Shown one piece after another: positions 7,057-57,867 of a stretch of DNA of 57,867 bases. How positions within the stretch are numbered: position 1 is the first letter of the stretch; every line of letters starts with the position of its first letter. The DNA is from Candidatus Parcubacteria bacterium (GTDB taxonomy: Bacteria; Patescibacteriota; Microgenomatia; Levybacterales; GWA1-39-11): the NCBI GenBank assembly GCA_003599595.1, contig QZIP01000038.1:1-57867 (forward strand), read 5' to 3'. The notes beneath the pieces were generated by a model that worked only from the letters and a program-made list of their open reading frames with translations, searched no databases and was not told where the DNA came from. Made by a program: the position numbers and the translations under genes.

Positions 7057-7175
7057 TAGATTGTCCTTTCTGTCCTTGCCAAGTTTGATTAGATGATATT
7101 AGCAAGAAGTAGGTGCGTGGTTAACACCGTCCCCACCAAAGGTGAGCTTGCCACCGCTTTTTTGAGATCGAGAAG

Positions 7176-7463: not shown

Positions 7464-7650
7464 GTCCAAGCTCCCTTCTGAACCAATACACATGTGAATT
7501 CCGCAACTCTCAATAGGCGGCACACCAGATACCTAATTTAATATTTCACCATAGGGATGACAGATATCCAGAGAACCACCTACTGAGTAGATTAGCTTTC
7601 CTCCAATCTTAGTTCGGTCTACCTAAGTCAAACACGATTTTTCACAACTA

Positions 7651-7669
7651 ATCCCGATTAAATCGGGAT
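7651..7669. repeat. CCCGAT-family 19-nt perfect palindrome
   Basis: ATCCCGATTAAATCGGGAT. Confidence 0.7.
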
Positions 7670-7866
7670 AATCTGTCAAAGTGCAAAAAATCCTTCTACG
7701 CATAAAGCTTTGAAGGACAAGAAATAAACAAAAGAAACAAAAAAACAGGCAGCAAAAAAATGCCTAGATTTATTTCTTTTGTGGAGTTGATTATATCTTA
7801 AAGAGGAAGAAAAGTCAATTACTATGAGATTTATCAGCAAAGCTAGGTTCCGCGTGGCACCTTAAT

Positions 7867-7901
7867 ATAAGATTACACCTTGTAACAAGGTGTAATCTTA
7901 T
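7867..7901. repeat. GATTACACC-family perfect hairpin downstream of the erm-like gene
   Basis: ATAAGATTACACCTT, loop GTAAC, AAGGTGTAATCTTAT. 15-bp stem. Confidence 0.6.
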
Positions 7902-7941
7902 ACACCATAATACTTATTATACTTTTACCTATAATGAAAGA

Positions 7942-11339: not shown

Positions 11340-11543
11340 AAAGCTAAAAAGTCAAATCTAAAATCTCAAATCTCAAATCTACATCTTAAATATTAAAACT
11401 TATAATCGATTAATGATTAAAGAATAAAGATTAATGAATAAATATATATAAAATATCATTAATCATAAATTCCGATTTAATCGGAATCAATCATTATTCA
11501 TTATTCAAGATATTATAGATTTTAGATTTGAGATTAATAAATT
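11340..11543. repeat. Large imperfect palindromic intergenic element built from heptamer arrays around a CCGAT palindrome
   Basis: Left arm is (CAAATCT/AAAATCT) heptamers at 11353-11394. Right arm AGATTTTAGATTTGAGATT (11518-11535) is complementary to it. Inner pairs are ATTAATGATT/AATCATTAAT and GATTAATGAATAA/TTATTCATTATTC. Central palindrome is ATTCCGATTTAATCGGAAT (11469-11487). Confidence 0.65.
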
Positions 11544-12749: not shown

Positions 12750-12781
12750 ATTTTATATTATTGTTTATAACACCAGTGTTT

Positions 12782-25752: not shown

Positions 25753-27190
25753 CTTTGAAACAATTGGCAAAAGATCTGCCCGGGGAATAGCTGCCTTAAT
25801 TTCCCGCTCTTTTTTTCTCAACATTATTTCCTACGCTACTTCTTTGGTGATATTTACCTACTTAACGCCAAAAGAGTTCGGAATTTATGCCGTGGTAATT
25901 GCAATGCAGCGTGTGGTAAGTTTTGTCACAGATTTTGGTTTGGGAGCAGCTCTTGTGCAGAAAAAAAATGAATTAAAGAAAGAAGATACAACAACATTTT
26001 TTACAATTCAGGTAGTTATTACACTTCTTGCTTTAATAATTCTCTTTTTTGCAAGAGACCTTATATCTTCATACTTCAAACTAAGCGAGACCTCCATATG
26101 GCTTTTGTTAGTATTGGTATTCACTGTTTTTCTTTCTTCATTCAAAGTTATTCCATCAGTTCAGCTTGAAAGAAAAATTAGGTTTGACAAACTTATTATC
26201 CCTCAAATAATAGAATCTTTTGTTTTTAATATGTTGCTTATTGTTTTGTTGGTAGCAAACCAAGGATTAAAAAGCTATATATGGGGATTTCTTGTCTCAA
26301 GTCTAGTAAGCATTCCTGCCTATTATTATATTTCTCCCTGGAAAATACGTATTGGAATATATAGAGAATCTTTAAAGCACTTAAAATACGGAATCCAGTT
26401 TCAGGGTAAAAACATTTTAGCTACCATAAAAGATGATTTTCTCACAATATTTCTTGCAAAAATACTTACATTCCAGGAAATTGGCTACATAGGATTTGGG
26501 CAAAGAAACGCTTTTTTTGCATACCGTTCAGTGGTTGATAATGTCACAAAGGTAACTTTTTCAACTTATTCAAGGATACAAGATAATTTAGAAGCATTAA
26601 GAGTAGCAATAAATAAATCGTTTTTTTATGTAAGTCTTTTAATGTTTCCAATTCTATCTGGAGTGATAATATTTGCTCCTTATCTAGTTGAGTATTTTCC
26701 CAGATGGCAGGGTAAATGGGAACTAGGATTGGTAAGCCTAACTTTTTTTAGTCTTAACGCGCTTATTTCTTCAATCTCCGGGATCTTAATTACCTTGTTA
26801 GATTCTTCAGGAAAAGTGAAAACAACCTTAAAGCTTATGACTTTATGGACAATACTCACATGGACTCTAACGCCCTTGTTTATTTATATTTTTGGTTTTA
26901 ATGGAGTTGCGATTGCATCATTTTTAATCACCTTCACTATCGTTATCACTATCCGCCTGGCTAAGAAAGTTGTTGAGTTTGATTTGTTGCAAAATATCTA
27001 CAAACCATTAATATCAACTGTGGTAATGAGCGTATTTGCTTATTGGTGTGCGCAGCTGCTAGTTTCAAACATGATAAGTCTAATAGTGGTTGTTTTCATT
27101 TCAGGATTGATATATGTTATAAACATATATCTTTTAGCCAAAGAAGAATTATTTCAAGGGGTTAAGTTAATTTTTATAAAAAGCACATGA
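25739..27190 (+). CDS. Wzx-like oligosaccharide flippase (MOP superfamily / polysaccharide biosynthesis protein)
   Basis: 483 aa, about 12-14 TM segments. N-terminal RSARGIAALISRSFFLNIISY..FGIYAVV..GLGAALVQ pattern. 14-nt overlap with the upstream GT2. Confidence 0.7.
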   Translation: MQESNFETIGKRSARGIAALISRSFFLNIISYATSLVIFTYLTPKEFGIYAVVIAMQRVVSFVTDFGLGAALVQKKNELKKEDTTTFFTIQVVITLLALIILFFARDLISSYFKLSETSIWLLLVLVFTVFLSSFKVIPSVQLERKIRFDKLIIPQIIESFVFNMLLIVLLVANQGLKSYIWGFLVSSLVSIPAYYYISPWKIRIGIYRESLKHLKYGIQFQGKNILATIKDDFLTIFLAKILTFQEIGYIGFGQRNAFFAYRSVVDNVTKVTFSTYSRIQDNLEALRVAINKSFFYVSLLMFPILSGVIIFAPYLVEYFPRWQGKWELGLVSLTFFSLNALISSISGILITLLDSSGKVKTTLKLMTLWTILTWTLTPLFIYIFGFNGVAIASFLITFTIVITIRLAKKVVEFDLLQNIYKPLISTVVMSVFAYWCAQLLVSNMISLIVVVFISGLIYVINIYLLAKEELFQGVKLIFIKST

Positions 27191-28134
27191 GTAATAAAAA
27201 TAATCTTTCTGTTGTCATATCTGCATATAATGAGCAAAAACATATCAAAGACTGTCTAGAGTCAGTTAGGGATCTTGCGGATGAAATAATTTTTATAGAC
27301 AACACGTCAGAGGATGACACATTAAAAATCGCAAAAAAATACACGGATAAAGTTTTTACCCATCCCAATAATCCAATGCTTAATATCAACAAAAATTATG
27401 GTTTCACAAAAGCAAGTTGTGATTGGATCTTAAACCTCGACGCAGACGAAAGAGTCACTTCAGAACTTGCAAACGAGATTAGGGAAGTAATCGGCTGCAA
27501 GTCACAAGTCACAAGCCACAAGCCAATTCAGGGTTACTGGATTCCAAGAAAAAATATGATCTTTGGAAAATGGATTCAAAATGATATGTGGTGGCCGGAT
27601 TACCAGTTAAGATTGTTTAAAAAAGGAAAGGGAAGCTTCCCAGAACAACACGTCCACGAATATCTCACGGTTCAAGGAGAAACTGAAAAACTCAGAGAGT
27701 CAATATTGCACATTAATTATTCATCCATTGATCAGTTTATCAATAAAATAGGTCTTTACACAGATAATGAAACAGAACAGGTACTGTCCTCAGGCAGAAA
27801 AATTATTTGGTTAGATGCCATAAGATTTCCTGCAAAGGATTTTATAAAGACCTTTTTTGCTCAAAAAGGGTATAGGGATGGTTTACATGGACTAGTATTG
27901 AGTATTCTTCAGGCATTTTATGCAGAGATTGTATTTGTAAAAATTTGGGAAAAACAAGGATTCACAGAGGAAAATAATAAAACCTTTTTAAAAGAGGTAT
28001 ATAAAGAATTTATAAAGATTGCTCTAGAAATAAGATATTGGTTTCTTTCCATTTTGATAGAGCAAGCCAGTAATCCCTTTAAAAAGATATTTTACCGCCT
28101 TCAAAGAAAAAACATAACCAGAAAACTTAAATAA
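27187..28134 (+). CDS. GT2 glycosyltransferase (WaaE/KdtX-like subgroup)
   Basis: 315 aa. LSVVISAYNEQKHIKDCLESVRDLADEIIFIDNTSEDDT, LDADE. ATGA overlap with the flippase gene. Confidence 0.75.
   Translation: MSNKNNLSVVISAYNEQKHIKDCLESVRDLADEIIFIDNTSEDDTLKIAKKYTDKVFTHPNNPMLNINKNYGFTKASCDWILNLDADERVTSELANEIREVIGCKSQVTSHKPIQGYWIPRKNMIFGKWIQNDMWWPDYQLRLFKKGKGSFPEQHVHEYLTVQGETEKLRESILHINYSSIDQFINKIGLYTDNETEQVLSSGRKIIWLDAIRFPAKDFIKTFFAQKGYRDGLHGLVLSILQAFYAEIVFVKIWEKQGFTEENNKTFLKEVYKEFIKIALEIRYWFLSILIEQASNPFKKIFYRLQRKNITRKLK
27498..27525 (+). repeat. Heptanucleotide array (CAAGTCA)2(CAAGCCA)2 inside the GT2 CDS
   Basis: Four tandem 7-mers encoding KSQVTSHKP in a region with no counterpart in paralog 33363-34112. 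Confidence 0.7.
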
Positions 28135-28145
28135 ATTCTTTATTA

Positions 28146-29093
28146 ATGGATATGAAAAAAGTAGCAATAGTAACATTAAGTTACAACAATGAAAAAGATA
28201 CAGCTGAATGTATAGAGTCAATAAATAACTTAAATACATCTACCTTTGACTTATCGGTTATAGTAGTAGATAACGGTTCAAATTCAAAATTCAACCCTTC
28301 GGCAAAGATCAGAGCAAGAATTCAAAATTCAAAATTAAATAAAGGACAATTGAACATAATAAGAAGTGAAGAAAATTTAGGGTTTGCAGAAGGGAACAAT
28401 ATCGGAATAAGGTATTCACTTGAAGAGGGTGCAGAATATATTTTATTGCTTAATAATGATACTTTAATAGACAAGAATTTAATTGTTGAATTGATAAAAA
28501 CAATTGAATCAAGTGACAAAATAGGTATAGTAGTTCCCAAGATATATTTTGCTCCCGGATACGAATTTCACAAAGACAGGTATGAAGAAAAAGAAAAAGG
28601 AAAAGTTATTTGGTATGCGGGGGGAGAAATAGATTGGAAAAATGTCATTGGTCATCATAGAGGTGTGGATGAAGTTGATCATAATCAGTTTGATAAAACA
28701 GAAGAAACTGAATTTGCAACCGGCTGCTGTATGTTGATTAAAAAAGAAGTGTTTGAAAAAATTGGAGCTTTTGACAAAAATTATTACCTTTATTATGAGG
28801 ATAGTGACTTCAGTGAAAGAACAAAAAAAGCAGGTTACAAAATCTTATTTAATCCAAAGGCTATAGTCTGGCACAAAAACGCAGGTTCAGCTGGAGGATC
28901 AGGTTCAAAACTTCAAGATTATTATATTACTCGCAATAGAATTTTATTTTCAATAAAATACGCTCCATTAAGATCAAAACTCGCCGTCTTAAAAGAAAGT
29001 GTAAAGATATTATTAAAAGGTAGAGATTGGCAAAGACGTGCAGTTGCCGACTTTTACTTTGGTAAGCTTGGTAAAGGAAGCTATGAAGAATAA
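28146..29093 (+). CDS. GT2 glycosyltransferase (WbbL/rhamnosyltransferase-like subgroup)
   Basis: 315 aa. VAIVTLSYNN, VVDNGSN, GFAEGNNIG, LLNNDT, GCCMLIKKEVFEKIGAFD, YYEDSDF. Confidence 0.75.
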   Translation: MDMKKVAIVTLSYNNEKDTAECIESINNLNTSTFDLSVIVVDNGSNSKFNPSAKIRARIQNSKLNKGQLNIIRSEENLGFAEGNNIGIRYSLEEGAEYILLLNNDTLIDKNLIVELIKTIESSDKIGIVVPKIYFAPGYEFHKDRYEEKEKGKVIWYAGGEIDWKNVIGHHRGVDEVDHNQFDKTEETEFATGCCMLIKKEVFEKIGAFDKNYYLYYEDSDFSERTKKAGYKILFNPKAIVWHKNAGSAGGSGSKLQDYYITRNRILFSIKYAPLRSKLAVLKESVKILLKGRDWQRRAVADFYFGKLGKGSYEE

Positions 29094-30843
29094 TTTCAGC
29101 TCCGATTTAACCAGATTCAAATTTCAAAAAAAGATCGGCGCATATACTGGTTTAATCTTAATCCTATTGTTCTCCCTTATTCCTCTCACTGATCTTTTTC
29201 ATCCGGGTCTACCCTTAACCCATGATGGTCAAGATCACGTGGCCCGGATTGCTAACTTTTATCAATCTTTTTCAGAAGGGAACTTTATTCCCAGATGGGC
29301 GGCTAATCTCAACTGGGGTTATGGACATCCAATACTTATGTTTCTTTATCCCTTGCCCTCTTATGCAAGTTCTCTGTTTCACTTTATAGGTTTTTCTTTG
29401 ACAGATTCCCTAAAAATTGTATTTGGCTTAAGCTTCATTTTGAGCGGGCTTGCAATGTATCTTTGGGTTAGAAATTTTCTTGGAGAGGCATCAGCACTTA
29501 TTGCGGGAGTATTCTATATTTTTGCTCCTTATAGATTTGTAGACCTTTATGTTAGGGGAGCAATTGGGGAACATACTGCTTTCATTTTTCCTCCACTACT
29601 ATTATATTTCTTGCTTAAGCTTTTCAAGGTTAAGTCATCAAATAGCCATGAACAATATTTTTACTCTATCGGTATTGCTTTTTCGCTTGCAGGCTTTATT
29701 CTTTCTCATAATGCAATCAGCCTTATGTTTCTTCCCTTTATATTCTTTTACGTTCTATACTTATCTCTTGATAAGAAGATAAAGACTAATAGTTCCTTGA
29801 TTAAATCACAACTATCAAGATTAGATGTGAATTATTTGATAAAAAGCTTATCATTTCTTGCTTTTGGATTTCTTATATCATCCTATTTTTGGGTTCCCGC
29901 TTTTTTTGAAGGGAAATATACTCTGAGAGACATAGTGACAAAAGGTGAGTATGCAAATCATTTTGTTAATGCTCCACGGTTGTTTAGTTCTGTTTGGAGT
30001 TACGGCGGGAGTCAAGATCTAAGTGTTCAAATAGGAATAATTCATTTAATAGGTACTGTCCTTTCAGTATTTCTTGCTATTAAATTATTCCATAAAAGCA
30101 AAAAAATATTTATGTTATACATTTTGTCTCTTATGTATTTATTAATATCATTAGTTCTCATGTTGGATCAATCTATTATAATTTGGCAAAAAGTTACTAT
30201 TTTACAAAAATTTCAATTTCCCTGGAGACTTTTATCTGTTGTTGTTTTTATGTCCTCATTTTTAGCAGCAATTGCTTTTTACGTTATTGAAAATAAAAAA
30301 ATGAAAAAGATTATTTTAATCATTTTTTTGGCATCCGTAATTATATTTAACAAAGACTATTGGCGGGCAAATGATTATCTTTACTTATCAGACAGCTTTT
30401 TTAAATCCATTTACAATGGCACGACAGATACAGGAGAAAGTGGACCTAAATGGTCTGTAAGATTTATGGAAAAAAGACCTAATAGTAGAATTGAAATTAT
30501 AGAAGGTAGCGGCAACATAAAAGAAATCTTTAGAGGTTCGACAGACCATAGATATATTATAGAATCCCCAGTAGATAGTGCCAGAGTTAGGGAAAATACT
30601 TTATATTTTCCCGGATGGGCAGTTTTTGTTGATGGAAAACCTGTTAACGTTGAATTCCAAGACCCAAGACATAGAGGTCTTATAACTTTTTATGTTGATA
30701 AGGGAAAACATTTAGTAGAAATTATTTTTGCCGAAACAAAACTCAGGCAAGCATCAAATATCTTATCTTTAATTTCGTTTATTACCATTTTGGTTTATGG
30801 CGCCCACGTATTTTCGTTAAAAAGACAAAAAAAAACTAAATAA
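29083..30843 (+). CDS. GT-C-like family A, A4
   Basis: LTHDGQDHVARIANFYQSFSEGNFIPRW..GYGHPILMF, ILSHNAISL, YFWVPAFFEGKYT, FQFPWRLLS, YFPGWAVFVDGKPV..GKHLVEIIF plus a TM anchor. ATG at 29083 preferred over the GTG at 29038. Confidence 0.6.
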   Translation: MKNNFSSDLTRFKFQKKIGAYTGLILILLFSLIPLTDLFHPGLPLTHDGQDHVARIANFYQSFSEGNFIPRWAANLNWGYGHPILMFLYPLPSYASSLFHFIGFSLTDSLKIVFGLSFILSGLAMYLWVRNFLGEASALIAGVFYIFAPYRFVDLYVRGAIGEHTAFIFPPLLLYFLLKLFKVKSSNSHEQYFYSIGIAFSLAGFILSHNAISLMFLPFIFFYVLYLSLDKKIKTNSSLIKSQLSRLDVNYLIKSLSFLAFGFLISSYFWVPAFFEGKYTLRDIVTKGEYANHFVNAPRLFSSVWSYGGSQDLSVQIGIIHLIGTVLSVFLAIKLFHKSKKIFMLYILSLMYLLISLVLMLDQSIIIWQKVTILQKFQFPWRLLSVVVFMSSFLAAIAFYVIENKKMKKIILIIFLASVIIFNKDYWRANDYLYLSDSFFKSIYNGTTDTGESGPKWSVRFMEKRPNSRIEIIEGSGNIKEIFRGSTDHRYIIESPVDSARVRENTLYFPGWAVFVDGKPVNVEFQDPRHRGLITFYVDKGKHLVEIIFAETKLRQASNILSLISFITILVYGAHVFSLKRQKKTK

Positions 30844-33251
30844 TGAAAAAAAAGATTATCTCTCTTCTACCAATATTTTTTATTTTTATTTTATGGATTA
30901 TTTTTTCTTATCCCTACTTTTTCAATAACAAAATTCCATACCCTTCTGATTATCAGGTAAATTTTTTCCCTCCCTGGAGCTCATATGAAGAATTTTGGGG
31001 GCCAATTAAAAATAATGCAATGCCAGACGTTGTCACTCAAATATATCCGTGGAAGCATTTTACAATAGAAACCTGGAAAATGGGCCAAATACCTCTATGG
31101 AATCCGAATAGTTTTGTAGGAAATGTTCATTTAGCAAACTACCAATCTGCTGTTCTCTCACCCTTCAACTTATTATTTTTTTTACTTCCCTTTGTTGATG
31201 CCTGGAGCTTGCTCGTTTTATTACAGCCATTGCTTGCCGGAATATTTACCTACGTATTTGTCAGAAGCTTAAAAGTAAGTAAAATTGGAAGCCTTATTTC
31301 TTCTATTTCTTTCATGTTTTGCGGTTTTATAACCGTCTGGATGGCTTATGGAACACTTGGATATGCTCTTCTTTTTTTGCCGCTTGCGCTTTTAGGTATA
31401 GAAAAATTTCACCAGACTCAACAAACAAAGTATCTAGTTCTCTTATCTTTAACTATTCCCTTATCCTTCTTTAGTGGACACTTTCAAATCAGTTTATACT
31501 TCTTTGCTACAGTTTTAGCCTACATCATTTATAAATTTGCTGTTACAAAAAAAGTACCTAATACTTTATACCTAATACTTTATGCCTTCTTCGGTCTTTT
31601 GCTATCTCTTCCTCAAATACTTCCTTCAATAGAATCATACTCGCAAACTTTTAGAAGTCTGCTTTATCAAAAACATGAAGCAATACCCCTAAATTATATT
31701 TTGACCTTTTTCCCCCCAGACTTTTACGGTAATCCTGTCACACGCAACGACTGGTTTGGTCATTACGCAGAATGGAATGCTTACTCAGGTGTAATTCCCC
31801 TACTTTTAGCAATTCTTGCTGCTTTTAGTAGAAAGTTTTATAGCACCGGATTCTTTGTCATTATTTGTTTAGGCACATTTTTTCTTGCTGTTGATACTGT
31901 GATTGTTAATATTGTAGTTAATATGCATATTCCTGTTATCTCCACCAGCTCTTTAAGTAGGATTGTTGGAGTTTTCAGTTTTTCAGTTGCAGTTTTGGCA
32001 GGATTTGGATTTGATGAAGTTATTAAAAAAACTTATAGTCAGAAGAAATATATTTACTGGATAATCAGTTCTCTTGTTATTTTTGCAATTCTTTGGATTG
32101 TTGTATTTTTGAAACTAATTCCTGACCCCTCAAAAATACATATTGCAAAAAGCAACCTTATATTTCCTACAATAATATTTACTTTAGGGTTCTTTGTAAT
32201 AATTTCTCATCTTTTAATTAACAAAATTATCAAGTTTCTTTCCTTGCCCTATTTCAATTCATTGCCTAACATAATTAAACAAAAGAAAAATATAACAGCT
32301 CTTTTATCTATCACAATTTTACTGATAATATCGTTTGACTTGGTTAGATTCTCAAGTAAATGGATGCCATTTGATCCAAGGGACCGTGTTTTCCCAAGCC
32401 TCGCTATCACAAAATTTCTTCCCCAAATATCATCAGCAGACCGTGCTCTTGGCAATTATGGTGCTGAGTTATCAGCTTACTACAACATTCCTTCTTTGGA
32501 AGGCTATGACCCAATCTATCTTAAGAGATATGGGGAATTTGCCGCCTACATAGAAAGAGGTGAGTTTGGTGAGTCGGGACGCTCTGTTGTAAATTTTCCA
32601 AGGAGCGGAGTTTATACAGATAAAGCAATTGATTTATTGGGGGTAAGATATATATTGCATAAGACATCAGATAATGGAGTAGGGTGGACATTTCCTTACT
32701 GGAATTACCCAAACAAGTTCAAGCTTATTTTTGAAGATGGAAAATATCAGGTTTATGAGAATAAAGAATCTTTCCCAAGAGCTTTTCTAGTAAATAATTA
32801 CAAGGTGATTAAACAAGAAGAAGAGATTTTAAAAACTCTATTTAATAACAGCTTTGATTTAAGCAAAGAAGTTATTCTTGAAGAAGAGCCAAATATTGAA
32901 TCAAGTAAAAAAATTCCAGCAGGTGAGGCAAAAATCATAAGATACATGCCCAACTCTATAGATGTGACAGTCAATGCAGTCTCCAGTTCAATCCTTCTCC
33001 TGACTGATAATTATTACCCTGGATGGGAAGCTTATATAGATGGGAATAAAACAAAAATATACCGCGGAAATTACACTTTCCGCGCTGTCATTGTTCCAAA
33101 AGGACAACACAATGTTAAATTTGTATATAATCCTCTAAGTTTTAGGATTGGAGTGTTTTTAGCAATCCTTGGCTTACTTGGAATTGTTGGATTTACTGTT
33201 ATAATAAAAAAGCGAAAAATGCAAAACTCAAAAGTCAAAACCAAAGTTTAA
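30843..33251 (+). CDS. GT-C family B (YfhO-like) B2
   Basis: 802 aa. IYPWK..GQIPLWNPNSFVGNVHLANYQSAVLSPFN, PDFYGNP, YYPGWEAYIDGNKTKIYRGN..GQHNVKFVY plus a TM anchor. TAATG overlap with A4. The C-terminal tail is encoded by heptamer repeats. Confidence 0.7.
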   Translation: MKKKIISLLPIFFIFILWIIFSYPYFFNNKIPYPSDYQVNFFPPWSSYEEFWGPIKNNAMPDVVTQIYPWKHFTIETWKMGQIPLWNPNSFVGNVHLANYQSAVLSPFNLLFFLLPFVDAWSLLVLLQPLLAGIFTYVFVRSLKVSKIGSLISSISFMFCGFITVWMAYGTLGYALLFLPLALLGIEKFHQTQQTKYLVLLSLTIPLSFFSGHFQISLYFFATVLAYIIYKFAVTKKVPNTLYLILYAFFGLLLSLPQILPSIESYSQTFRSLLYQKHEAIPLNYILTFFPPDFYGNPVTRNDWFGHYAEWNAYSGVIPLLLAILAAFSRKFYSTGFFVIICLGTFFLAVDTVIVNIVVNMHIPVISTSSLSRIVGVFSFSVAVLAGFGFDEVIKKTYSQKKYIYWIISSLVIFAILWIVVFLKLIPDPSKIHIAKSNLIFPTIIFTLGFFVIISHLLINKIIKFLSLPYFNSLPNIIKQKKNITALLSITILLIISFDLVRFSSKWMPFDPRDRVFPSLAITKFLPQISSADRALGNYGAELSAYYNIPSLEGYDPIYLKRYGEFAAYIERGEFGESGRSVVNFPRSGVYTDKAIDLLGVRYILHKTSDNGVGWTFPYWNYPNKFKLIFEDGKYQVYENKESFPRAFLVNNYKVIKQEEEILKTLFNNSFDLSKEVILEEEPNIESSKKIPAGEAKIIRYMPNSIDVTVNAVSSSILLLTDNYYPGWEAYIDGNKTKIYRGNYTFRAVIVPKGQHNVKFVYNPLSFRIGVFLAILGLLGIVGFTVIIKKRKMQNSKVKTKV

Positions 33252-33362
33252 AAATCAAAACTTATTATACTATTATTGCAAAGTTTTTAGCTTTAAGTTT
33301 TAGTTTTGAGCTTTGACCCCGATTTAATCGGGGTTGAGATTTAAGTTTTGAGATTGTTTATT
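33220..33362. repeat. Palindromic element built from heptamer arrays around a CCCCGAT palindrome
   Basis: AAACTCA/AAAGTCA/AAACCAA heptamers (from 33224), complementary AAGTTTTAGTTTTGAGCTTTGAC, palindrome ACCCCGATTTAATCGGGGT (33316-33334), then TTGAGATTTAAGTTTTGAGATT. Confidence 0.6.
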
Positions 33363-35762: not shown

Positions 35763-38114
35763 ATGAAAAAGATAATAAAAAAAAACATATATTATTTCTT
35801 ATTGGTAGTAGTTGTCTTTATTTTTTTTTATCAGTTCTTTTTGAAAGGTTTTTTGCCTATCCCTTCAGACACAATCATCGGCCTTTATCACCCTTTCAGG
35901 GATTATTATTCAAAAGATTATCCAAATGGTATTCCATTCAAAAATTTTTTAGTTACAGATCCAGTACGCCAAACTTTTCCCTGGAAAAAACTTGCCCTGG
36001 ACACATCTCCAGGTTCAACTCTTCCAATCTGGAATCCTTATGAGATGGCAGGAAAGCCTTTAATTGGCAATTTTCAAACAGGTTTTTTCTATCCATTTAA
36101 TCTGATTTTTTTCCTCAAGCCCTTTTATTTATCCTGGTCAATCTTTATTTTTTTGCAATCACTTTTTGCCGCCACATTTATGTATTTATATTTAAAAAAT
36201 TTAAATTTGGATAATAGAGCTGTTTATTTAGGTACAGTCTCTTTTTGTTTTTCAAGTTTTTTTATCTCCTGGCTTGAATGGGGAAACGTAATACATACGG
36301 CATTGTGGCTACCTCTCATCTTGTTAGCCATCGACAAAATCTTTATTTATCAAAAGCAAATAAACTCAAATCTCAAAGCTCAAAATTCAAAGCCACAACT
36401 CAAAACTCAAAACTTATTTGTTTGGTCAATGATATTCCTTTTTTCACTTACATCCTCATTTTTTGCAGGACACCTACAAATATTTTTTTATCTTTTTATT
36501 TTTTCCTCGATTTATTTTTTTGCTAAATGGTATAAAGAAGGAAAAAAGACAAAATTGTTTATATCATACTTAATACTTAATACATTCTTCTTAATACTTA
36601 CTTCAGTTCAATGGGTTCCAACTCTACAGTTTATTCTCTTATCCGCAAGAGGCGTTGACCAAGTCTATTATCAAGCTGAAGGATGGTTTATTCCCTGGCA
36701 GCATCTTGTTCAGTTCCTTGTTCCAGATTTCTTTGGAAATCCTACCACCTTAAATTATTGGGGGACGTGGAATTATGCAGAGTTAAGCGGATATGTAGGG
36801 GCTGTTCCATTAATATTCGCTTTAATAGCAATATTTTTTAGATTTGATAAAAAAACTCTTTTTTTTGGGACAGCATTACTAATATCTTTATTATTTTCTC
36901 TACCTACCTTTTTCGCCGGGCTTCCTTATGTTTTAAATATTCCATTTATTTCTTCTTCTCAGCCCACAAGGCTACTTTTTATAACCTCTTTTTGCTTGGC
37001 TGTCTTGTCTTCTTTGGGGTTTAATCTGATGATAAAAAATCCTAGACTAATTAATAAGGCAATAATAACAAGTATTGTAGTAGGCTTGTCTTACGCCGCT
37101 TTATGGATTTTTGTTCTGACAGGTTCGTTAAGCATGTTTAATATTTCACCTGAAAATATTGCTACAGCAAAAAGAAACTTAATTTTTCCATCTAGTATTT
37201 TTCTTGCAGTTTTCTTTTTAATTATAGTTGTAAAATATTTTAAAAATCATCTTTTCCAAACAATAATATTTATCGCCATTTTAATTCTTGCATCATTTGA
37301 GCTTTTAAGATTTTCATTTAAGTTTGAGCCTTTTACAGACAAGGCATATCTTTTTCCTGAAACAAAAGTTATAGAATTTCTTAATAGTCAAAAAAAACCT
37401 TTTAGAATTGCATCTTTAGATTCAAGAATTTTTCCACCTAATTTTTCAACTTATTACAAGCTGGAATCAATAGAAGGGTACGACCCTCTCTATTTATCGT
37501 CTTACGCTGAATTTATAGCCGCCTCAGAAAGAAACAGGGCAAATGTTGATCCTCCTTTTGGTTTTAATAGAATCATCACTCCACGAAATCTAGATTCAAA
37601 ATTAATAGACCTTTTAAATGTTAAATACACTCTTTCATTATCAGAAATTAACTCGGGTAAGTTTAACAAAGTCTTCCAAGAAGGACAAACCCGGATTTAC
37701 GAGAATAAAGATGTTTTACCCCGGATATTTTTTACTGAAAACATAAAACTCGTGAATAACAAAAAAGACGCGTTAAATATTATGTTTGAAAAAGACTTTG
37801 ACCCTCTTAAATTAGCGGTTATAGAATTTCACACTTCAGATCTTGCCTTGTACCCCCGGAGCGCAAAGCAGAATGCATCCCAGGGGTGCCTAAGGTGTAG
37901 CGTTGAAATATTAGATTACAGAGAGAATGAAATAAAAATTAAAACAAAAAATGAAGTTAGTGGATTTTTAGTAATTACTGACACGTACTATCCAACCTGG
38001 AAAGTATTAATTGATGGAAAAAAAGATAAAATTTATAAAACTAACTATACTTTCAGAGGTTTGTTTATTCCGGAGGGAGAACATATAATAACAATGTACA
38101 CAACGCTATTCTAA
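35763..38114 (+). CDS. GT-C family B (YfhO-like) B3, lacking the terminal TM anchor
   Basis: 783 aa. TFPWK..LPIWNPYEMAGKPLIGNFQTGFFYPFN, PDFFGNP, YYPTWKVLIDGKKDKIYKTN..GEHIITMY. It then stops, whereas B1, B2 and B4 continue about 30 aa into a TM helix. Confidence 0.7.
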   Translation: MKKIIKKNIYYFLLVVVVFIFFYQFFLKGFLPIPSDTIIGLYHPFRDYYSKDYPNGIPFKNFLVTDPVRQTFPWKKLALDTSPGSTLPIWNPYEMAGKPLIGNFQTGFFYPFNLIFFLKPFYLSWSIFIFLQSLFAATFMYLYLKNLNLDNRAVYLGTVSFCFSSFFISWLEWGNVIHTALWLPLILLAIDKIFIYQKQINSNLKAQNSKPQLKTQNLFVWSMIFLFSLTSSFFAGHLQIFFYLFIFSSIYFFAKWYKEGKKTKLFISYLILNTFFLILTSVQWVPTLQFILLSARGVDQVYYQAEGWFIPWQHLVQFLVPDFFGNPTTLNYWGTWNYAELSGYVGAVPLIFALIAIFFRFDKKTLFFGTALLISLLFSLPTFFAGLPYVLNIPFISSSQPTRLLFITSFCLAVLSSLGFNLMIKNPRLINKAIITSIVVGLSYAALWIFVLTGSLSMFNISPENIATAKRNLIFPSSIFLAVFFLIIVVKYFKNHLFQTIIFIAILILASFELLRFSFKFEPFTDKAYLFPETKVIEFLNSQKKPFRIASLDSRIFPPNFSTYYKLESIEGYDPLYLSSYAEFIAASERNRANVDPPFGFNRIITPRNLDSKLIDLLNVKYTLSLSEINSGKFNKVFQEGQTRIYENKDVLPRIFFTENIKLVNNKKDALNIMFEKDFDPLKLAVIEFHTSDLALYPRSAKQNASQGCLRCSVEILDYRENEIKIKTKNEVSGFLVITDTYYPTWKVLIDGKKDKIYKTNYTFRGLFIPEGEHIITMYTTLF
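36362..36415 (+). repeat. Degenerate heptamer array (AANCTCA-like, about 8 units) inside the B3 CDS
   Basis: AAACTCA AATCTCA AAGCTCA AAATTCA AAGCCAC AACTCAA AACTCAA, encoding NSNLKAQNSKPQLKTQN. This segment is absent from B1, B2 and B4. Confidence 0.65.
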
Positions 38115-38252: not shown

Positions 38253-39197
38253 ATGAAGATAGATATTATTATTCCAAATTACAACGGTTTACGTTTGGTA
38301 GAAAAGAATCTTCCGCTCGTTATTGACAGAGTTAAAGATTTTAATGGTGTTTCGATAGTTATCGTAGATGACTGTTCAAGCCGCGATGAGTTTGAAAAAA
38401 TCAAAGAATTAATCACTTCATTGTCAGACATTGATCCCAAAACTAAAATAGAACTTATTAGAAATGAGAAAAATCTAGGATTTTCATCCTCAATTAATAA
38501 AGCCGCCTTAAAATCAAATGCCGATTACCTAGTATTTTTGAATACGGATGTTATTCCGGAAAAAGACTTTTTAAAAGCGGCAATAGAGGACATGATGGAA
38601 GACAACAATCTTTTTGGCATAGGTTTTTTAGATAAAAGTATTGAAGGGGAAAAAACAATACTTAGAGGTAGAGGGGTTGGAGCATGGAAAAGAGGATTTT
38701 TGATTCACAAGCGTGGAGAAGTGGATAGAGACAATACTCTTTGGATCTCAGGTGGCAGTTGTTTGGTTAATGCTAAAGTCTTTAAAAAACTGGGAGGCTT
38801 CGACAATATATACAATCCATTTTACTGGGAAGATATTGATTTATCTTACAGAGCTCAAAAAGCAGGATTTAACATATTATTTGAAAAAAGAAGTGAGGTT
38901 GTGCATAAGCACTTTGAGGGAGCAATAAAAAAATATTACAGCGGTTTTCAAATAAAGACCTACGCTTACAGAAATCAATTTATATTTATTTGGAAAAATA
39001 TTACTGATTTGAGTTTGGTTCTTTCACATATTTTATGGCTGCCTTATCATTTGCTTCGTGCTTTAATAAGGCTAGACACTCCCTTTTTTCTTGGATTTGT
39101 TCTTGCACTAGTCAAGATTCCTGTTATAATTTTTAAAAGGATAAGAGAGGCAAAAAACACTAAAACAGACAAGCAAGTCCTGCAAAAATTTAAATGA
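38253..39197 (+). CDS. GT2 glycosyltransferase (WbbL-like subgroup), paralog of 28146-29093
   Basis: 314 aa. IDIIIPNYNG, IVDDCSS, GFSSSINK, FLNTDV, GGSCLVNAKVFKKLGGFD, YWEDIDL. Confidence 0.75.
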   Translation: MKIDIIIPNYNGLRLVEKNLPLVIDRVKDFNGVSIVIVDDCSSRDEFEKIKELITSLSDIDPKTKIELIRNEKNLGFSSSINKAALKSNADYLVFLNTDVIPEKDFLKAAIEDMMEDNNLFGIGFLDKSIEGEKTILRGRGVGAWKRGFLIHKRGEVDRDNTLWISGGSCLVNAKVFKKLGGFDNIYNPFYWEDIDLSYRAQKAGFNILFEKRSEVVHKHFEGAIKKYYSGFQIKTYAYRNQFIFIWKNITDLSLVLSHILWLPYHLLRALIRLDTPFFLGFVLALVKIPVIIFKRIREAKNTKTDKQVLQKFK

Positions 39198-39907
39198 AAC
39201 TATCAATAATAATTCCCGCTTACAATGAAGGAAAAACAATTGGTGAAATACTGAAAAAAGTAGAAAAAGTTCAATTGAATGGCGTTGGGAAAGAAATTAT
39301 TGTAGTTGACGATGGATCAATCGATGCCACAGCATCGGTAATTTCCAATTTCCAATTTCCAATTTCCAATTTTAAAATTATAAGGCACAAAAGAAACCTT
39401 GGAAAGGGGGCGGCAGTGCAAACGGGCATTGAAAACGCAACAGGTGATATGATATTGATTCAGGATGCAGATTTAGAATATGACCCCAAAGATATACCCA
39501 GACTTATAGAGCCAATAATTAAGAATAAATCCAAAGTTGTTTATGGCACAAGACTTAGGACCAAGCCCGTACTGTTTGGAAACAAAAGAACGCCATTATT
39601 AGCTCATTTTTTTGGAAATAAGTTTCTAAGCTTAGCAACAACAATATTATATGGTAAAAAAATAACAGATATGGAAACGGGATATAAAGTGTTTCACAAA
39701 TCCGCTCTTGCAGGCATTAAATTAAAAGCAAAATCTTTTGATTTTGAGCCAGAAATAACCGCAAAAATTTTAAGAAAAGGTATTGAAATTCACGAAATAG
39801 ATATAAAAACAAATCCAAGAGGATATGGGGAAGGAAAAAAATTAGTCGCTCTAAAAGATGGCCCTCTTGCCATGTGGACACTAATAAAATACAGATTTAT
39901 TAATTAG
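39194..39907 (+). CDS. GT2 polyprenyl-phosphate sugar synthase (DPM1/ArnC-like)
   Basis: 237 aa. LSIIIPAYNE, VVDDGSIDAT, IQDADLEYDP, ETGYKVF. ATGA overlap with the upstream GT2. Confidence 0.8.
   Translation: MKLSIIIPAYNEGKTIGEILKKVEKVQLNGVGKEIIVVDDGSIDATASVISNFQFPISNFKIIRHKRNLGKGAAVQTGIENATGDMILIQDADLEYDPKDIPRLIEPIIKNKSKVVYGTRLRTKPVLFGNKRTPLLAHFFGNKFLSLATTILYGKKITDMETGYKVFHKSALAGIKLKAKSFDFEPEITAKILRKGIEIHEIDIKTNPRGYGEGKKLVALKDGPLAMWTLIKYRFIN
39342..39369 (+). repeat. Perfect heptanucleotide array (TTTCCAA)x4 inside the GT2 CDS
   Basis: Four exact tandem 7-mers encoding ISNFQFPISNF. Confidence 0.85.
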
Positions 39908-53942: not shown

Positions 53943-55677
53943 CTAGTTAAAACTTGTGATAAATTTTTCACAAAACAATTTTTCTGACAATCTTTCAACC
54001 TCTAAGTCGTTCAGCCCAATGCCTATAGGGTATCTATTTAGCATGTATTTATTACAAACTTTGTCATTAAATATTTTATAGATCTCTCCTCCATCTGATA
54101 ATTGACTAATGCTTAAATTCTTTGAAAGAGAACTTGTAGACTTGCACTTGTTGTCAGGAAGAGTGATGATTGTATAATTCAAGGGCAAAGATTCTTTAGG
54201 GCAAAGAGAAACCTTAAAATTTTTATAATCATAATTACTCCTTTTTACTACAGAAGAGATTTCACTTACTGTTTTCCTACTAAGCATATTGTTATAGAAT
54301 AAATACTGCTTAAATAATGGTGGAATTGAACTTTCTAAACTATGATCAATTAGAACAACGTTTTGATTATTATCCGATGCAAGACTGATGTATTTAGAAA
54401 GTATTCTTCCGCTAAATCCAAAACCTTCAGAGTTGTATAGGGGATTTTGAAGCAAATATATATGTAGGAAATTAGAAAGAGAAATAGCGTAAAGAAAAAT
54501 AACACCAAAAACAATAATGGATTTTAAATATCCCTTGAATAAGTTTATAGAAAAATAAATTCCATACCCCGTTATTAATAATAGGGTTGGGAATAGAAGA
54601 AAAGAGCGTGTGGCATAGCTCACCCCCACAGTGCTTAATACTGTAGGTAGGGGGGGAAATCAAGACAATAGCAAATAGTAAGAGACTTGCTTTACGGTGG
54701 TACTTAAAAAGCGAATATGCACCAATAATTAGAAATATTACATCTATATAAAAGAATAGACCATGATTCCACACGGAAAATGTAGATCTTCCATCTCCAT
54801 ATAGAAATAGTAATTGAGGTGAAAAAGCTCCATAGTATTTTTCCAAAGAGTATTTTAGGTAAGTAGAAATCTTATTTTCCAATAAATTATTTATGGGAGA
54901 TTCAATCGATAGCTTCCGCTCTTTATTAACTCTTTGTTCAATTGAATAGTGAAAAGGTGTTGATATTTCTGCTGTTCTTGATGATCCTGGCTGAAAAACC
55001 GAGAAGAATAAATAGTGAGCCATAATGCCTAAAGACATAAGAAGAATAAAAATATATACCTTTGTATACCTCTTCTTATTTATATATTTCCATGAAAAGA
55101 GGATAATTATAATTGAGAATGGAAGAAAGACTATTTTAGAACCAATATAAGAAAAGAATGCTAAAAACAGTAGCGGAATAGCAAGTAGAAGCATATGTCT
55201 TTTTGCATAAAGCAATACAAGAAGGGAAGAAAAATAAAAGAAGGAAGAGATAGGAGAATCAAAAGCCGTACGGCCGAAATATATCATCCAGGGATTAATT
55301 GCTGCAAGTAGTCCTATTGCTATAGCTTGTGGCTTTCCAAAGAGCTTTTTTGCAATAAAATACAAGACAAGTACAAGCATCGTATTAATAAAAACATATG
55401 GAAGTCTTGCATAGAAGAGAGAAAAAGGAAAAATACCAATAATTGGGGCAATAAAAACATATGGAAGCTCGGCTTTGGGATATTCCAAAGGAGGCGGCTT
55501 AAGACTAAGGGGGTTCCATGTTCCACTTATATCACTTCCACTCAGAAAGAGTGCCTTAGCATTGAAGACATAATCAAGTTCATCATCGCTTATGCCTGTT
55601 GGAATCTTGTCTAGCCACAATAATCTTAAAGACAATGATAAGATTAGTATTATGATTATAGGTAGATATCTTGTCAC
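53943..55677 (-). pseudogene. GT-C family C (GT39-like) C4, split by a frameshift at a C7 homopolymer
   Basis: The N-terminal ORF 54472-55677 (LRLLWLDKIPTGISDDELDY) loses paralog similarity after ..AIVLISPP. ORF 53943-54629 resumes with VGVSYATRSFLLFPTLLLITGYG. Removing one C from C7 (plus-strand G7 at 54650-54656) gives LISPLPTVLSTVGVSYATRSF, colinear with the paralogs. Confidence 0.8.
54650..54656 (-). repeat. C7 (plus-strand G7) homopolymer at the frameshift point
   Basis: TAGGGGGGGAAAT on the plus strand. G/C runs are rare in this AT-rich window: the only others I noted are two C6 runs (near 21600 and 31712). Confidence 0.9.
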
Positions 55678-55731: not shown

Positions 55732-57435
55732 ATGAGTAGAAAATATATTCTAATATTAATTATCCTTCTTGCATTTATATTACGTTTTTATCAAATATCA
55801 AACATTCCCCCTTCTCTTACTTGGGATGAAGCGGCGTGGGGCTATAATGCATATTCATTAGGAATTAATGGAAGAGATGAGTTCGGAAAATTTCTACCCA
55901 TAACTTACATTGAGTCTTTTGGCGACTTTAAGCCCCCTCTATATGCTTATTTGTCAATTTTACCAATAAAATTGTTTGGCCTTAATGAATTTTCTGTAAG
56001 ATTTGCATCTGCCTTTTTAGGAACATTAACGGTTTTATTGACATATTTTCTAACAAAACAAATATTTTCGCAAAAATCACAGTTACTTGATATTTGGCAT
56101 TTGAAATTTGGAATTCCAGAAGTAGCATCACTACTTCTGGCTATCTCTCCTTGGCATATTCTTCTATCCCGTGCTGCTTTTGAAGCTAACGTTGCCACTT
56201 TTTTTATAGTCCTTGGAGTATTGTTGTTTTTTATCTCTACTCAAAACACCAAGGGCGCATCTTCAATCTCATTAATTCCACTTTGGATATGGAGACGTAT
56301 TAACACATCGGGAGGCTTGTTCTTGCTTTCAGTGCTATCATTTACCGCATCTATGTATACTTTTAATACTGCACGTGTTGTTGTTCCACTTTTGGTTTTT
56401 GGTCTTATTACCGGAAAAAGAAAAGCACTCCTAAATATAAAGAAACAAGTATTCATAGCCGCAGTAATCGGATTTATTATCTTTCTTCCTTTAGGACTAT
56501 TTCTTAAAACACCTCAGGCTCAGCTAAGATTCCAAGAGGTCAATATTTTTTCTGATCCTTCTGTTATTGAAAGATCCAATCAGCAGATAAAAAATGACAA
56601 TAATGCTTTTTGGTCAAAAATAATTCACAATAGAAGGCTGGCTTATTCTGTAGAATTTCTAAGGCATTACTTTGACAACCTTAACCCCTCATTCCTCTTC
56701 TTTAAAGGTGATGGTAACCCAAAATTTTCTACACAAGACATAGGTCAAATGTATGTTTGGGAACTCCCATTCTTTATATTCGGTTTTCTTTATCTGTTTA
56801 GAAATAGGCAAGGAAATTGGTGGATTGTTCCTTACTGGTTATTGATTGCAATCTTGCCTGCTGCAACAGCCAGGGAAACACCTCATGCTCTTAGAATAGA
56901 AGCTGCTTTGCCAACATTTCAAATAATAACTGCTTATGGATTATTCCAAATAATTTCAAATTTCAAATTTCAAATTTCAAATTTCAAATTAAATTATCTA
57001 TTGCCAAGTATTGTTTTTGTATTAGCATTATTTAATTTGGCATATTTCATGCATAATTATTTTGTTCATTACCCGCGGGAATTCTCAGGAGAGTGGCAAT
57101 ATGGTTATAGGGAAGCAATAAATTATGCAAAGAGTGTTGAAGATCAGTATAGCAATATTTATTTAACAGACAGTCTTGGCAGACCATATATATACACTCT
57201 TTTCTATACTCAGTACGATCCTAATAAATTCTTACAGGAAGCAAAAATAGAGAGAGAAGTTTTTGGTTTTGTAAAAGTTAAAAATTTTGGAAAATACACT
57301 TTTGAGAAAACACAAGAACCCTCTGTAAATACATTATTTATTGATAGACCAGGCAATGTTCCTGGAGGAGCAAATATATTAAAAGAATTTTATCTATTAA
57401 ATGGTGAAAAAATATTAACAGCCTACACAATATAA
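55732..57435 (+). CDS. GT-C family C (GT39-like) C5
   Basis: 567 aa. LRFYQISNIPPSLTWDEAAWGYNAYSL, SPWHILLSRAAFE, RETPHALRIEAALP. Contains an in-frame heptamer array. Confidence 0.75.
   Translation: MSRKYILILIILLAFILRFYQISNIPPSLTWDEAAWGYNAYSLGINGRDEFGKFLPITYIESFGDFKPPLYAYLSILPIKLFGLNEFSVRFASAFLGTLTVLLTYFLTKQIFSQKSQLLDIWHLKFGIPEVASLLLAISPWHILLSRAAFEANVATFFIVLGVLLFFISTQNTKGASSISLIPLWIWRRINTSGGLFLLSVLSFTASMYTFNTARVVVPLLVFGLITGKRKALLNIKKQVFIAAVIGFIIFLPLGLFLKTPQAQLRFQEVNIFSDPSVIERSNQQIKNDNNAFWSKIIHNRRLAYSVEFLRHYFDNLNPSFLFFKGDGNPKFSTQDIGQMYVWELPFFIFGFLYLFRNRQGNWWIVPYWLLIAILPAATARETPHALRIEAALPTFQIITAYGLFQIISNFKFQISNFKLNYLLPSIVFVLALFNLAYFMHNYFVHYPREFSGEWQYGYREAINYAKSVEDQYSNIYLTDSLGRPYIYTLFYTQYDPNKFLQEAKIEREVFGFVKVKNFGKYTFEKTQEPSVNTLFIDRPGNVPGGANILKEFYLLNGEKILTAYTI
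56954..56988 (+). repeat. Perfect heptanucleotide array (TTTCAAA)x5 inside the GT39 CDS
   Basis: Five exact tandem 7-mers encoding ISNFKFQISNFK. Confidence 0.9.
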
Positions 57436-57438
57436 AAT

Positions 57439-57867
57439 ATGTCAAAAAAAATTGAAATAATAACATTTGTCATAATTGTCGCCATTGCCGCATTGTTAAG
57501 GCTTTATCAGATTGGAAATGTTCCTCCATCTCCTGACTGGGATGAAGTATCATTAGGTTACAATGCCTACTCAATAATGCTTACGGGAAGAGATGAATAT
57601 GGAGAACTGCTTCCTGTTATAATGCGCTCTTTTGATGATTACAAACCCGCTCTTTATTCGTATTTTATTATTCCCTTTATTAAGATTTTCGGACTCAATA
57701 CAATATCTGTCCGCTTGCCATCGGTTGTGTTTGGAATAATTGCGGTTATAGCAACTTACTTCTTAACAAAAGAACTATTTAAAAATTCGAATATTAAATT
57801 TGAAATTTGCCTGCCCCGTTTATTTGCGAAGCAAATTTTTCGGGGGAATTTGAAATTAGAAATTCCA
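57439..57867 (+). CDS. GT-C family C (GT39-like) C6, 3'-partial (runs off the window)
   Basis: LRLYQIGNVPPSPDWDEVSLGYNAYSI..SVRLPSVVFGIIAVIATYFLTKELF. Open to the end of the window. Not in the ORF track because it has no stop. Confidence 0.75.
   Translation, partial: MSKKIEIITFVIIVAIAALLRLYQIGNVPPSPDWDEVSLGYNAYSIMLTGRDEYGELLPVIMRSFDDYKPALYSYFIIPFIKIFGLNTISVRLPSVVFGIIAVIATYFLTKELFKNSNIKFEICLPRLFAKQIFRGNLKLEIP
57814..57845 (+). repeat. GC-rich nested hairpin with a GCGAAGCAA core inside the C6 CDS
   Basis: CCCCG-TTT-ATTTGC-GAA-GCAAAT-TTTT-CGGGG, flanked by AATTTGAAATT repeats and translated as ..CLPRLFAKQIFRG.. Confidence 0.65.

Follow-up and report, generated by a model that had tools for sequence, protein, structure and literature searches.

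Contig QZIP01000038.1, from a member of the Levybacterales in the Candidate Phyla Radiation (CPR), was analysed over its whole length of 57,867 nt (hereafter the window), which has a GC content of 33% and from ~10.5 kb onward is given over to a glycosylation island of ~45 kb. The island holds ~20 genes for glycosyltransferases of the GT-C type (PMT/PMT_2, YfhO and PTPS_related), together with several of families GT2 and GT4, a GT20 gene, a flippase and a methyltransferase. The subject here is one of the GT-C genes, designated C5, and a perfect array of heptanucleotide repeats lying in frame within it, for which a preliminary description of the DNA had proposed phase variation. The gene, the array and a second, degenerate array nearer the start of the gene are as follows:

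55732..57435 (+): host gene C5, encoding a 567-aa ArnT/PMT-like GT-C (lipid-carrier-dependent) glycosyltransferase, assigned from Pfam, an AlphaFold2 model and fold matches
56952..56990 (+): perfect heptanucleotide array (AATTTCA)x5.6, encoding ISNFKFQISNFKL, found with Tandem Repeats Finder (TRF) and our own scan, and assessed by simulations
56087..56115 (+): degenerate array with the reverse-complement unit TTGAAAT, 'site A' of C5, found with TRF, with the translation LLDIWHLKFGIPE

The array and its host gene

The preliminary description had placed five exact TTTCAAA units, in frame, at 56954-56988. The window does read exactly (TTTCAAA)x5 at 56954..56988, and the periodicity extends further than had been claimed, as TRF delimits a perfect period-7 array, (AATTTCA)x5.6, at 56952..56990 (+), 39 nt long and with 100% matches. 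The array is in frame with the open reading frame (ORF) 55732..57435 (+), encodes the peptide I-SNFKFQISNFK-L at aa 408-420, and lies 72% into the gene, away from the 5′ end. First-order Markov simulations of the window (n=100) produced zero period-7 arrays of at least three copies, compared with three observed, and a longest run of 18 nt; the array is real and beyond chance. It is also quasi-palindromic, and as single-stranded DNA forms a mismatched hairpin (z -3.1 and -4.7 for the two strands).

C5 matches Pfam PMT (E 7.6e-9, 35.9 bits, cut-off 22.7) and reaches PMT_2 with 26.1 bits, exactly at the cut-off of 26.1. An AlphaFold2 model built with 120 homologues has a predicted local distance difference test score (pLDDT) of 88.4 and a predicted template modelling score (pTM) of 0.90, and matches GT-C folds at probability 1.0, the closest in the PDB being ArnT 5ezm (GT83; template modelling score 0.52, E 3e-8), followed by AglB/PglB and Pmt4; a search of PDB sequences with C5 gave no match. 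D32 and E33 are invariant among the 120 homologues, and provide the acidic motif of the first extracytoplasmic loop that is expected of a GT-C enzyme. ArnT ranks ahead of Pmt4, so that the nearest solved relative does not place C5 in GT39/PMT; with ArnT as the best fold, 'ArnT/PMT-like GT-C' is a safer label than 'GT39'. The best homologues are proteins of Candidatus Levybacteria (Microgenomates, CPR), at up to 63% identity.

The array peptide runs from the end of the transmembrane (TM) helix 390-410 through a short hairpin turn, modelled with low confidence, into the start of the last TM helix (420-450), and nowhere in the model is confidence (pLDDT) lower than in its loop. It is probably cytoplasmic, as orthologues without the array have loops of KKYKK type at this position, in keeping with the positive-inside rule. 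A C-terminal soluble domain is predicted after helix 420-450, and a frameshift at the array would be expected to delete both that helix and the soluble domain. Site A likewise corresponds in the model to an inter-helix hairpin loop (aa ~113-127, pLDDT ~69).

Comparisons drew on 80 orthologous loci from species-representative genomes and 11 loci from metagenome contigs (L numbers; proteins carry P numbers). When orthologues were aligned, as the preliminary description had proposed, the segment between G403 and N435, both invariant, proved hypervariable in length among the 120 homologues. Most species have the short, basic KKYKK-type loop at the C5 site, relative to which the C5 array is an expansion, and a subset has array-derived peptides. 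Four loci 59-65% identical to C5 (L082, L081, L083 and L087) share its AATTTCA unit, site, frame and total length, with 0-3 substitutions. Unit number and unit sequence are variable elsewhere: L003 has 2.3 units, three fewer than the 5.6 of the window; L085 has a 14-nt variant unit; and other clades have ATATCAA-, AGTATCGAGTATTC-, GTATCAAGTATTAA- or AAACTTA-type arrays. In L084 and L008 a GC-rich insert of ~24 nt lies in mid-array.

Variation between closer relatives has been found at the same position, termed site B. The proteins P0113 (542 aa) and P0167 (549 aa), from 90% protein clusters, differ by exactly 7 aa there, and their genes (L088 and L089, ~92% identical) differ by a single indel, which lies within the array and amounts to 21 nt, the length of three heptamer units. 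The frame is preserved, in agreement with the earlier claim that only three-unit changes can do so, and both copy number and unit sequence vary at one locus between related genomes, as is characteristic of long simple sequence repeats (SSRs). The contigs L090 and L091, from sister samples, show 99.9% identity as far as the site-B array (junction ~7250-7297), after which L090 reads into the C-terminal portion of the tandem paralogue that follows, forming a chimeric GT-C gene; the junction reflects either array-mediated recombination between paralogues, with a deletion of ~1.6 kb, or assembly collapse.

At positions with identical amino acids, the same codon is used in 79% of cases within the array, versus 45% in the rest of the gene (pooled P ~3e-13, from pairs that are non-independent). 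This indicates that the array is conserved or homogenised at the DNA level, and is the opposite of the conserved peptide with synonymous variation that the preliminary description had associated with an ordinary coding segment.

A class of period-7 arrays in Levybacteria and beyond

The C5 array belongs to a large set. In 1.52 Mb of DNA from 88 Levybacteria loci there are 62 perfect period-7 arrays of at least three copies (38 with at least four), with 0 expected, and periods 6 and 8-15 yield 0 such arrays; an excess over both chance and other periods is the signature of heptamer long SSRs. Long ORFs contain 54 of the 62 (87%), on the sense strand, and when all arrays of at least 18 nt are considered, 102 of 105 are assigned to ORFs. 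Coding arrays reach at most 5.6 copies, and the sole longer array, of 8.9 copies, is intergenic. Density is ~10 per 100 kb in GT-C and GT2 genes versus ~3 per 100 kb in other genes (~3-fold), although even the latter figure is far above chance.

Arrays recur at particular positions within each family. In GT39 paralogues they lie at relative positions 0.01, 0.21-0.27 (site A) and 0.70-0.76 (site B, the C5 site), with 29 arrays at site B. In the other families the positions are:

PTPS_related genes: relative position 0.37-0.47, all 9 arrays
GT2 genes: relative positions 0.16-0.23 and 0.34-0.45
YfhO genes: relative positions 0.24-0.28 and 0.35

T-rich arrays with the units TTTGCTA, TTTGTTA and GTTTATT (L087 2766-2794; L011 11242-11273; L024 4975-4996; L004 ~4440) encode hydrophobic stretches (LFAICYLLFAI) within the TM helix that follows site B, which suggests that array composition tracks the local protein environment.

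The same arrays occur far outside this lineage. When metagenome contigs were scanned for four exact copies of the AATTTCA unit, at least 120 matched. Among the matches listed, contig GC content ranges from 0.28 to 0.66, array length is sharply peaked at 31-34 nt (~4.6 units), and three adjacent phases account for the starts of 115 of 122 arrays, a bias part of which may be due to the fixed phase of the search pattern. Several of these listed arrays are in frame, usually as 'ISNFKFQISN', in genes for leucyl-tRNA synthetase (two contigs) and the NAD-dependent DNA ligase LigA (two contigs, at the same site), and also in those for UvrD, the CCA-adding enzyme, CobQ, RecJ, class-3 fructose-1,6-bisphosphatase and a non-ribosomal peptide synthetase-type adenylation enzyme. 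The loci concerned are:

L092, L163, L116, L120, L131, L135, L149, L185, L126 and L101: in-frame AATTTCA blocks on unrelated metagenome contigs

The presence of arrays in essential single-copy genes shows that the array class is not in itself a phase-variation device. The most informative case is NuoN of a member of the Verrucomicrobiaceae (L143, P0177; 489 aa, in a genome of 61% GC), whose orthologues (P0178-P0295) are 80-93% identical and nearly all 489-490 aa long. Loop length is constant among them, while the loop itself reads EISNFKFQISN, EISNLKSQISN, NLQSSISNLQS, QLSTLNPQLST or EISDFKFEISN, and in a few cases the non-periodic EIPERLTHVTN. Even in an essential gene, therefore, heptamer arrays exchange one unit for another without a change of site. 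A discrete 32-nt insertion that lengthens proteins was considered and rejected for NuoN, as array-bearing and array-less orthologues are all 489 aa.

Returning to the window, a scan of periods 5-12 found perfect arrays of at least three copies at period 7 alone, and TRF together with our own scan placed period-7 arrays in at least eight genes and two intergenic regions. The C5 array is therefore one of many, which had gone unnoticed in the preliminary description. The remaining arrays are:

39340..39372 (+): perfect (AATTTCC)x4.7 in the GT2 gene 39194..39907, in frame and encoding ISNFQFPISNF
36362..36414 (+): degenerate (AAACTCA)x7.7 in the YfhO-type GT-C gene 35763..38114 (TRF)
36566..36600 (+): second degenerate array of the YfhO-type gene 35763..38114 (TRF, own scan)
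33222..33262 (+): degenerate (CAAAACT)x6 over the C-terminal tail and stop codon of the YfhO gene 30843..33251 (TRF)
28280..28336 (+): two short perfect arrays, AAATTCA x2.1 and AATTCAA x2.6, in the GT2 gene 28146..29093 (TRF)
27498..27525 (+): (CAAGTCA/CAAGCCA)x4 in the GT2 gene 27187..28134 (TRF)
12729..12759 (+): (ATTTTAA)x4.4 over the last codons and stop of ORF 11544..12749 (TRF)
11340..11535 (no strand): intergenic cluster of four adjoining arrays, with the units AAATCTA, TAATGAT, TCATTAT and ATTTTAG (TRF)
57790..57867 (+): site A of the next GT-C gene (start 57439), with TTGAAAT repeats around a GC-rich nested hairpin and the contig end inside it

An array identical to that at 39340..39372 is present at the same site of the orthologous GT2 gene in L009. 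The hairpin at 57790..57867 has the form CCTGCCCCG..TTTGCgaaGCAAA..CGGGGG, with the in-frame translation ...NIKFEICLPRLFAKQIFRGNLKLEIP.

Other GC-rich mini-inserts of ~24-40 nt, also in frame, are nested in AT-rich heptamer arrays (for example TCCTTCGACAATGCTCAGGACAGG, translated as SFDNAQDR, and another giving PFDFAQGR; L084 3088-3240, L008 5006-5160, L035 11120-11270 and L030 1-60), and an 8-aa insert of similar kind, ALSAGSGQ, is polymorphic between P0083 and P0173, which are at least 90% identical as proteins. Only such individually seen cases are given, the scan for GC islands being too unspecific to count mini-inserts. They are reminiscent of the very small dispersed repeats, nested in cyanobacterial heptamer arrays, that Elhai and colleagues reportedly described in 2008. 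Arrays of different units, ~4-5 units each, also abut directly as 'arrays of arrays' in intergenic DNA (L146 ~2280-2353 (-), the window at 11340..11535, L122 and L113), including in GC-rich genomes.

Contig ends fall inside arrays (of at least 16 nt) in 4 of 69 cases versus 0.44 expected (P ~0.001), mostly at GT39 site A; the ends noted include the right end of L084, both ends of L030, the right end of L037 and the right end of the window. This enrichment may reflect population heterogeneity, or equally assembly ambiguity among paralogues, to which contig breaks at heptamer repeats have been ascribed in other systems too (PMC4679880).

One neighbouring gene is itself broken. A GT-C (PMT_2) paralogue on the minus strand, at 53943..55677, consists of two overlapping ORFs with a +1 frameshift at a C7 tract (G7 on the plus strand) at 54650..54656, where six bases instead of seven would restore the frame (...ISPLPTVLSTVGVSYATRSF...). 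The break may stem from an error of sequencing, mark a pseudogene or reflect genuine phase variation at the homopolymer. ORF 5422..6417 (-), which lies upstream of the glycosylation island, has HTH_38/HTH_23 domains, as in a transposase-like N-terminus, and adjoins a rise in GC content at 6001..8000 (0.415 vs ~0.33).

Slippage, switching and other explanations

On present evidence it is somewhat better supported than not that the C5 array is a heptanucleotide microsatellite shaped by slippage and out-of-register homogenisation, filtered by the reading frame and tolerated in a loop, with no dedicated ON/OFF device involved, and that it is a member of a class of short in-frame arrays, abundant throughout the lineage, that occupy structurally permissive loop-coding positions on the sense strand. 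In this mechanism, 7-nt units misalign and change in number, and since the unit is indivisible by 3, coding DNA retains changes of three units (21 nt, 7 aa) alone. Array lengths are in consequence quantised, at ~32 nt in most cases, from a proto-repeat of ~11 nt with 21 nt added, and at 18+21 = 39 nt for C5, which is the relation seen between L003 and C5. A ~32-nt length mode specific to coding DNA is a prediction of frame-filtered slippage, and among arrays independent of the search pattern a second mode at 29-35 nt comprises 47 of 152 coding versus 9 of 77 non-coding arrays (P=0.001); non-coding arrays have a long tail, and the longest arrays are non-coding.

Concerted evolution, by repeated pairing out of register and slippage, would also keep the units identical, a pattern that is evident in the alignments and for which this mechanism is the putative cause. 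Homogenisation of this kind would explain why arrays are perfect, why their codons are shared between species and how one unit can replace another at the same site with no change of length. The units that persist are those with no stop codon in any cyclic frame, and on the sense strand only, as the antisense unit TGAAATT gives TGA in every frame. A-rich units would yield peptides of K/N/Q/S/I/F, which the structural model and the positive-inside rule suggest are tolerated in short, probably cytoplasmic inter-helix loops. Slippage and homogenisation would account for the observed loop-length polymorphism and for array regions as junctions between tandem paralogues, and may further maintain a low background of frameshift mutants that selection purges. 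Hairpin formation was considered as a general cause and rejected, since the AATTTCC array does not fold.

Several observations weigh against this microsatellite explanation. Perfection at ~60% identity requires very frequent homogenisation, unless the DNA or RNA sequence is itself under selection, and very frequent homogenisation would bring frequent frameshift mutants and hence behaviour resembling phase variation. Simple local slippage fits poorly with the GC-rich contigs, where the AT-rich block is abrupt and its flanks show no visible seed, and with the non-random boundaries of the arrays. Nor does it account for period 7, and hairpin potential is confined to some units. Furthermore, a search of metagenome contigs for same-species variants, using an exact-flank pattern with a variable gap, gave 0 matches, and the C5 protein cluster is a singleton.

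A true contingency locus, in which gain or loss of one or two units would flip C5 OFF or ON at high frequency and diversify surface glycans, for example against phages or hosts, with the array-bearing GT-C paralogues acting as a combinatorial 'phasome', seems unlikely. The tract is perfect, its unit is not a multiple of 3 and it lies in a glycosylation gene, as in the precedent of pglE (PMC7157529), and the ~3-fold higher density in GT-C and GT2 genes points the same way. Some arrays (L035 and L085) directly follow start codons; that of C5 is 72% into the gene. Unit number does change, and homogenisation implies frequent slippage, but the differences seen are of three units only, rather than the one- or two-unit steps of a switch, and copy number is unchanged across five species 59-65% identical to C5. 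Validated heptanucleotide switches, with truncated strain alleles, reach 13-38 units (PMC2651432), although Haemophilus influenzae tracts of a few units are also on record there, and the C5 tract has 5.6; the same arrays are present in essential genes. The enrichment of contig ends (4/69 vs 0.44 expected) would suit population-level switching, yet fits assembly ambiguity among paralogues equally well (PMC4679880), and the break of the neighbouring paralogue at its G7 tract is a further point in favour of switching in this region.

The search for OFF alleles yielded zero among more than 150 coding arrays. A blastx census of split genes over 1.5 Mb with ~480 GT-C genes detected no frameshift at a heptamer array; its three candidates were the G7 case of the window, an array-less site-A case in L007 and a dubious one in L010. 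The L007 case (~8497-8614) is a GT39 paralogue whose frameshift coincides exactly with site A, where no array is left, and may represent the out-of-frame loss of one. Where an array reaches an ORF boundary, it either lies at a gene junction or is N-terminal and in frame with the start codon. L019 and L069 were rejected as OFF alleles, being gene-junction arrays that cover a GalE-like C-terminal tail and the ATG of the next gene, as were the short-span metagenome cases L146 and L172, in which the arrays are intergenic or at junctions.

Perfection of the array had been taken in the preliminary description to indicate recent or ongoing slippage, with the phase variation of Neisseria and Haemophilus genes as the parallel. 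Instability is borne out by the 21-nt indel and the codon identity; switching has gained no such backing, as no OFF allele was found. ON/OFF switching of C5 is unproven and on balance unlikely, and the claim of phase variation is weakened, while the array class is more unusual than was then realised.

It is less probable again that the arrays are a maintained or actively generated module, either kept at ~32 nt for a function at the DNA or RNA level or written or inserted by a templated mechanism; such a function might be a one-protein-per-heptamer binding platform or a pausing or structural signal, with coding incidental. This would suit the breadth of the set, (AATTTCA)~4.6 being found on at least 120 contigs of 28-66% GC, with phased boundaries (115/122) and a length peak of 31-34 nt among the matches listed, although part of the boundary bias possibly comes from the fixed-phase search pattern, and among pattern-independent arrays the ~32-nt mode is coding-specific, as frame filtering predicts. 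The abrupt, seedless AT-rich blocks in GC-rich genes, the perfection across ~60%-identical orthologues, the replacement of the NuoN unit at constant length, the adjoining arrays of different units and the nested GC-rich mini-inserts are all compatible with a module. Heptamer repeats are bound by CspB, one protein per unit, according to the account relayed in PMC4679880, but the arrays comprise many different units with no single consensus, and no candidate enzyme or binding protein was identified among the window genes.

A broader version of this idea, in which arrays of ~32 nt (4.6 units) constitute a distinct genomic module, distributed from CPR bacteria to GC-rich Verrucomicrobia, in frame at fixed loops even of essential genes (leuS, ligA, nuoN, recJ, uvrD), perfect over deep divergence and with the unit swapped in place at constant length, is likewise unlikely. 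Were it correct, the arrays would need a mechanism dedicated to writing or homogenising them, or else the 7-nt periodicity would have a function in DNA or RNA; where glycosylation paralogues are redundant, as with C5, array instability might also serve as a switch of low frequency.

An ordinary coding segment, in which the protein needs the ISNFKFQISNFK peptide for its function and AT-biased codons give rise to the DNA periodicity incidentally, is very improbable. The peptide is identical in several orthologues and the genome has 33% GC; set against this, the synonymous identity of 79% in the array vs 45% elsewhere effectively rules such a segment out, most orthologues lack the segment or have unrelated periodic peptides, the model is least confident in the loop, and the same DNA block occurs in unrelated proteins. 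An assembly or sequencing artefact can hardly be entertained, for although the C5 contig is a singleton and contigs tend to break at arrays, the array, at 39 nt, is below read length and in frame, and orthologous arrays occur in independent assemblies (NCBI, ENA, JGI, Logan).

SSRs with units that are not a multiple of 3 are expected to be purged from coding DNA. Against that expectation, perfect 7-nt arrays persist here in frame, their lengths quantised and their units turning over in concert, even in genes that are essential and belong to unrelated phyla. The GT-C paralogues of CPR bacteria form very large sets, with ~20 in the window. A hotspot at conserved loops could supply loop-length variants, chimeric enzymes through recombination of tandem paralogues (as in L090 vs L091) and standing frameshift mutants, and it is plausible that together these are a source of glycan diversity even without a classical switch. 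Slippage, homogenisation and frame selection could be measured in these naturally occurring arrays; in practical terms, assemblies break at them, and an annotator relying on sequence alone may be misled into calling phase variation.

Relation to known repeat systems

Among the closest parallels are the heptanucleotide phase-variable tracts of Neisseria and Haemophilus. The protein-glycosylation glycosyltransferase gene pglE of Neisseria shows all phasotypes among isolates (PMC7157529), and C5 is likewise a glycosyltransferase gene. The heptanucleotide tracts of Haemophilus influenzae range from a few up to 38 units, with single-unit differences between strains and truncated ORFs, examples being the hmw1A/hmw2A promoters, (AACAACC)n in the ORF of a TonB-dependent receptor and (AATTTTG)14 inside hmw1A (PMC2651432). 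With these tracts the C5 array shares a perfect 7-nt repeat at a surface or glycosylation gene, where a one-unit change shifts the frame. Its 5.6 units, a number kept in five species, compare with tracts that reach 13-38 units (PMC2651432), and it is unlike the pglE and hmw tracts in differing between relatives by three units only, in the absence of any OFF allele among those seen and in the occurrence of its class in essential genes as well.

A second comparison is with bacterial long SSRs. As Mrazek 2007 is reported in PMC4679880 and PMC4692102, heptanucleotide repeats are the most abundant class of 5-11 nt SSRs in many bacterial genomes, and polymerase slippage has been proposed as the cause, with 7 nt matching the polymerase footprint. 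Like the (GGGAATC)n repeats of Xanthomonas and the GGGGA(C/T)T repeats of Nostoc, as far as those accounts describe them, the arrays show a heptamer excess, ~four units and variation of length and sequence between relatives. The long-SSR sets covered there are mainly intergenic and under-represented on the coding strand, repeats in multiples of 3 being dominant in coding DNA. The present arrays depart from the intergenic location of the Xanthomonas, Nostoc and Beggiatoa sets, with 54 of 62 (87%) in long ORFs, on the sense strand and at conserved loop positions, and with CPR bacteria and Verrucomicrobia as hosts.

There is also a resemblance to the cyanobacterial short tandemly repeated repetitive (STRR) sequences and to the TAACTGA repeats of Beggiatoaceae, Cyanobacteria and Bacteroidetes, which form dispersed sets of 2-6 copies with mixed adjoining arrays, contig breaks and a patchy phylogeny (PMC4679880). 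STRR and TAACTGA repeats are mostly intergenic and often upstream of genes, with translational regulation suggested, whereas the arrays described here are translated as loops. Coding micro- and minisatellites of surface proteins offer a further likeness, in that the number of peptide units changes without destroying the protein and recombination between paralogues is promoted. The unit of such satellites is usually divisible by 3, unlike the 7-nt unit here, with its 21-nt quantum and a frameshift at every single-unit step.

A literature search for heptanucleotide or heptameric repeats in connection with CPR, Patescibacteria or Verrucomicrobia found none, and the class, comprising ~32-nt arrays at conserved sites with in-place unit turnover, in GC-rich Verrucomicrobia as well, appears undescribed. 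Among the systems compared, the C5 array fits the known class of heptamer long SSRs in all but one respect, namely its overwhelmingly intragenic location.

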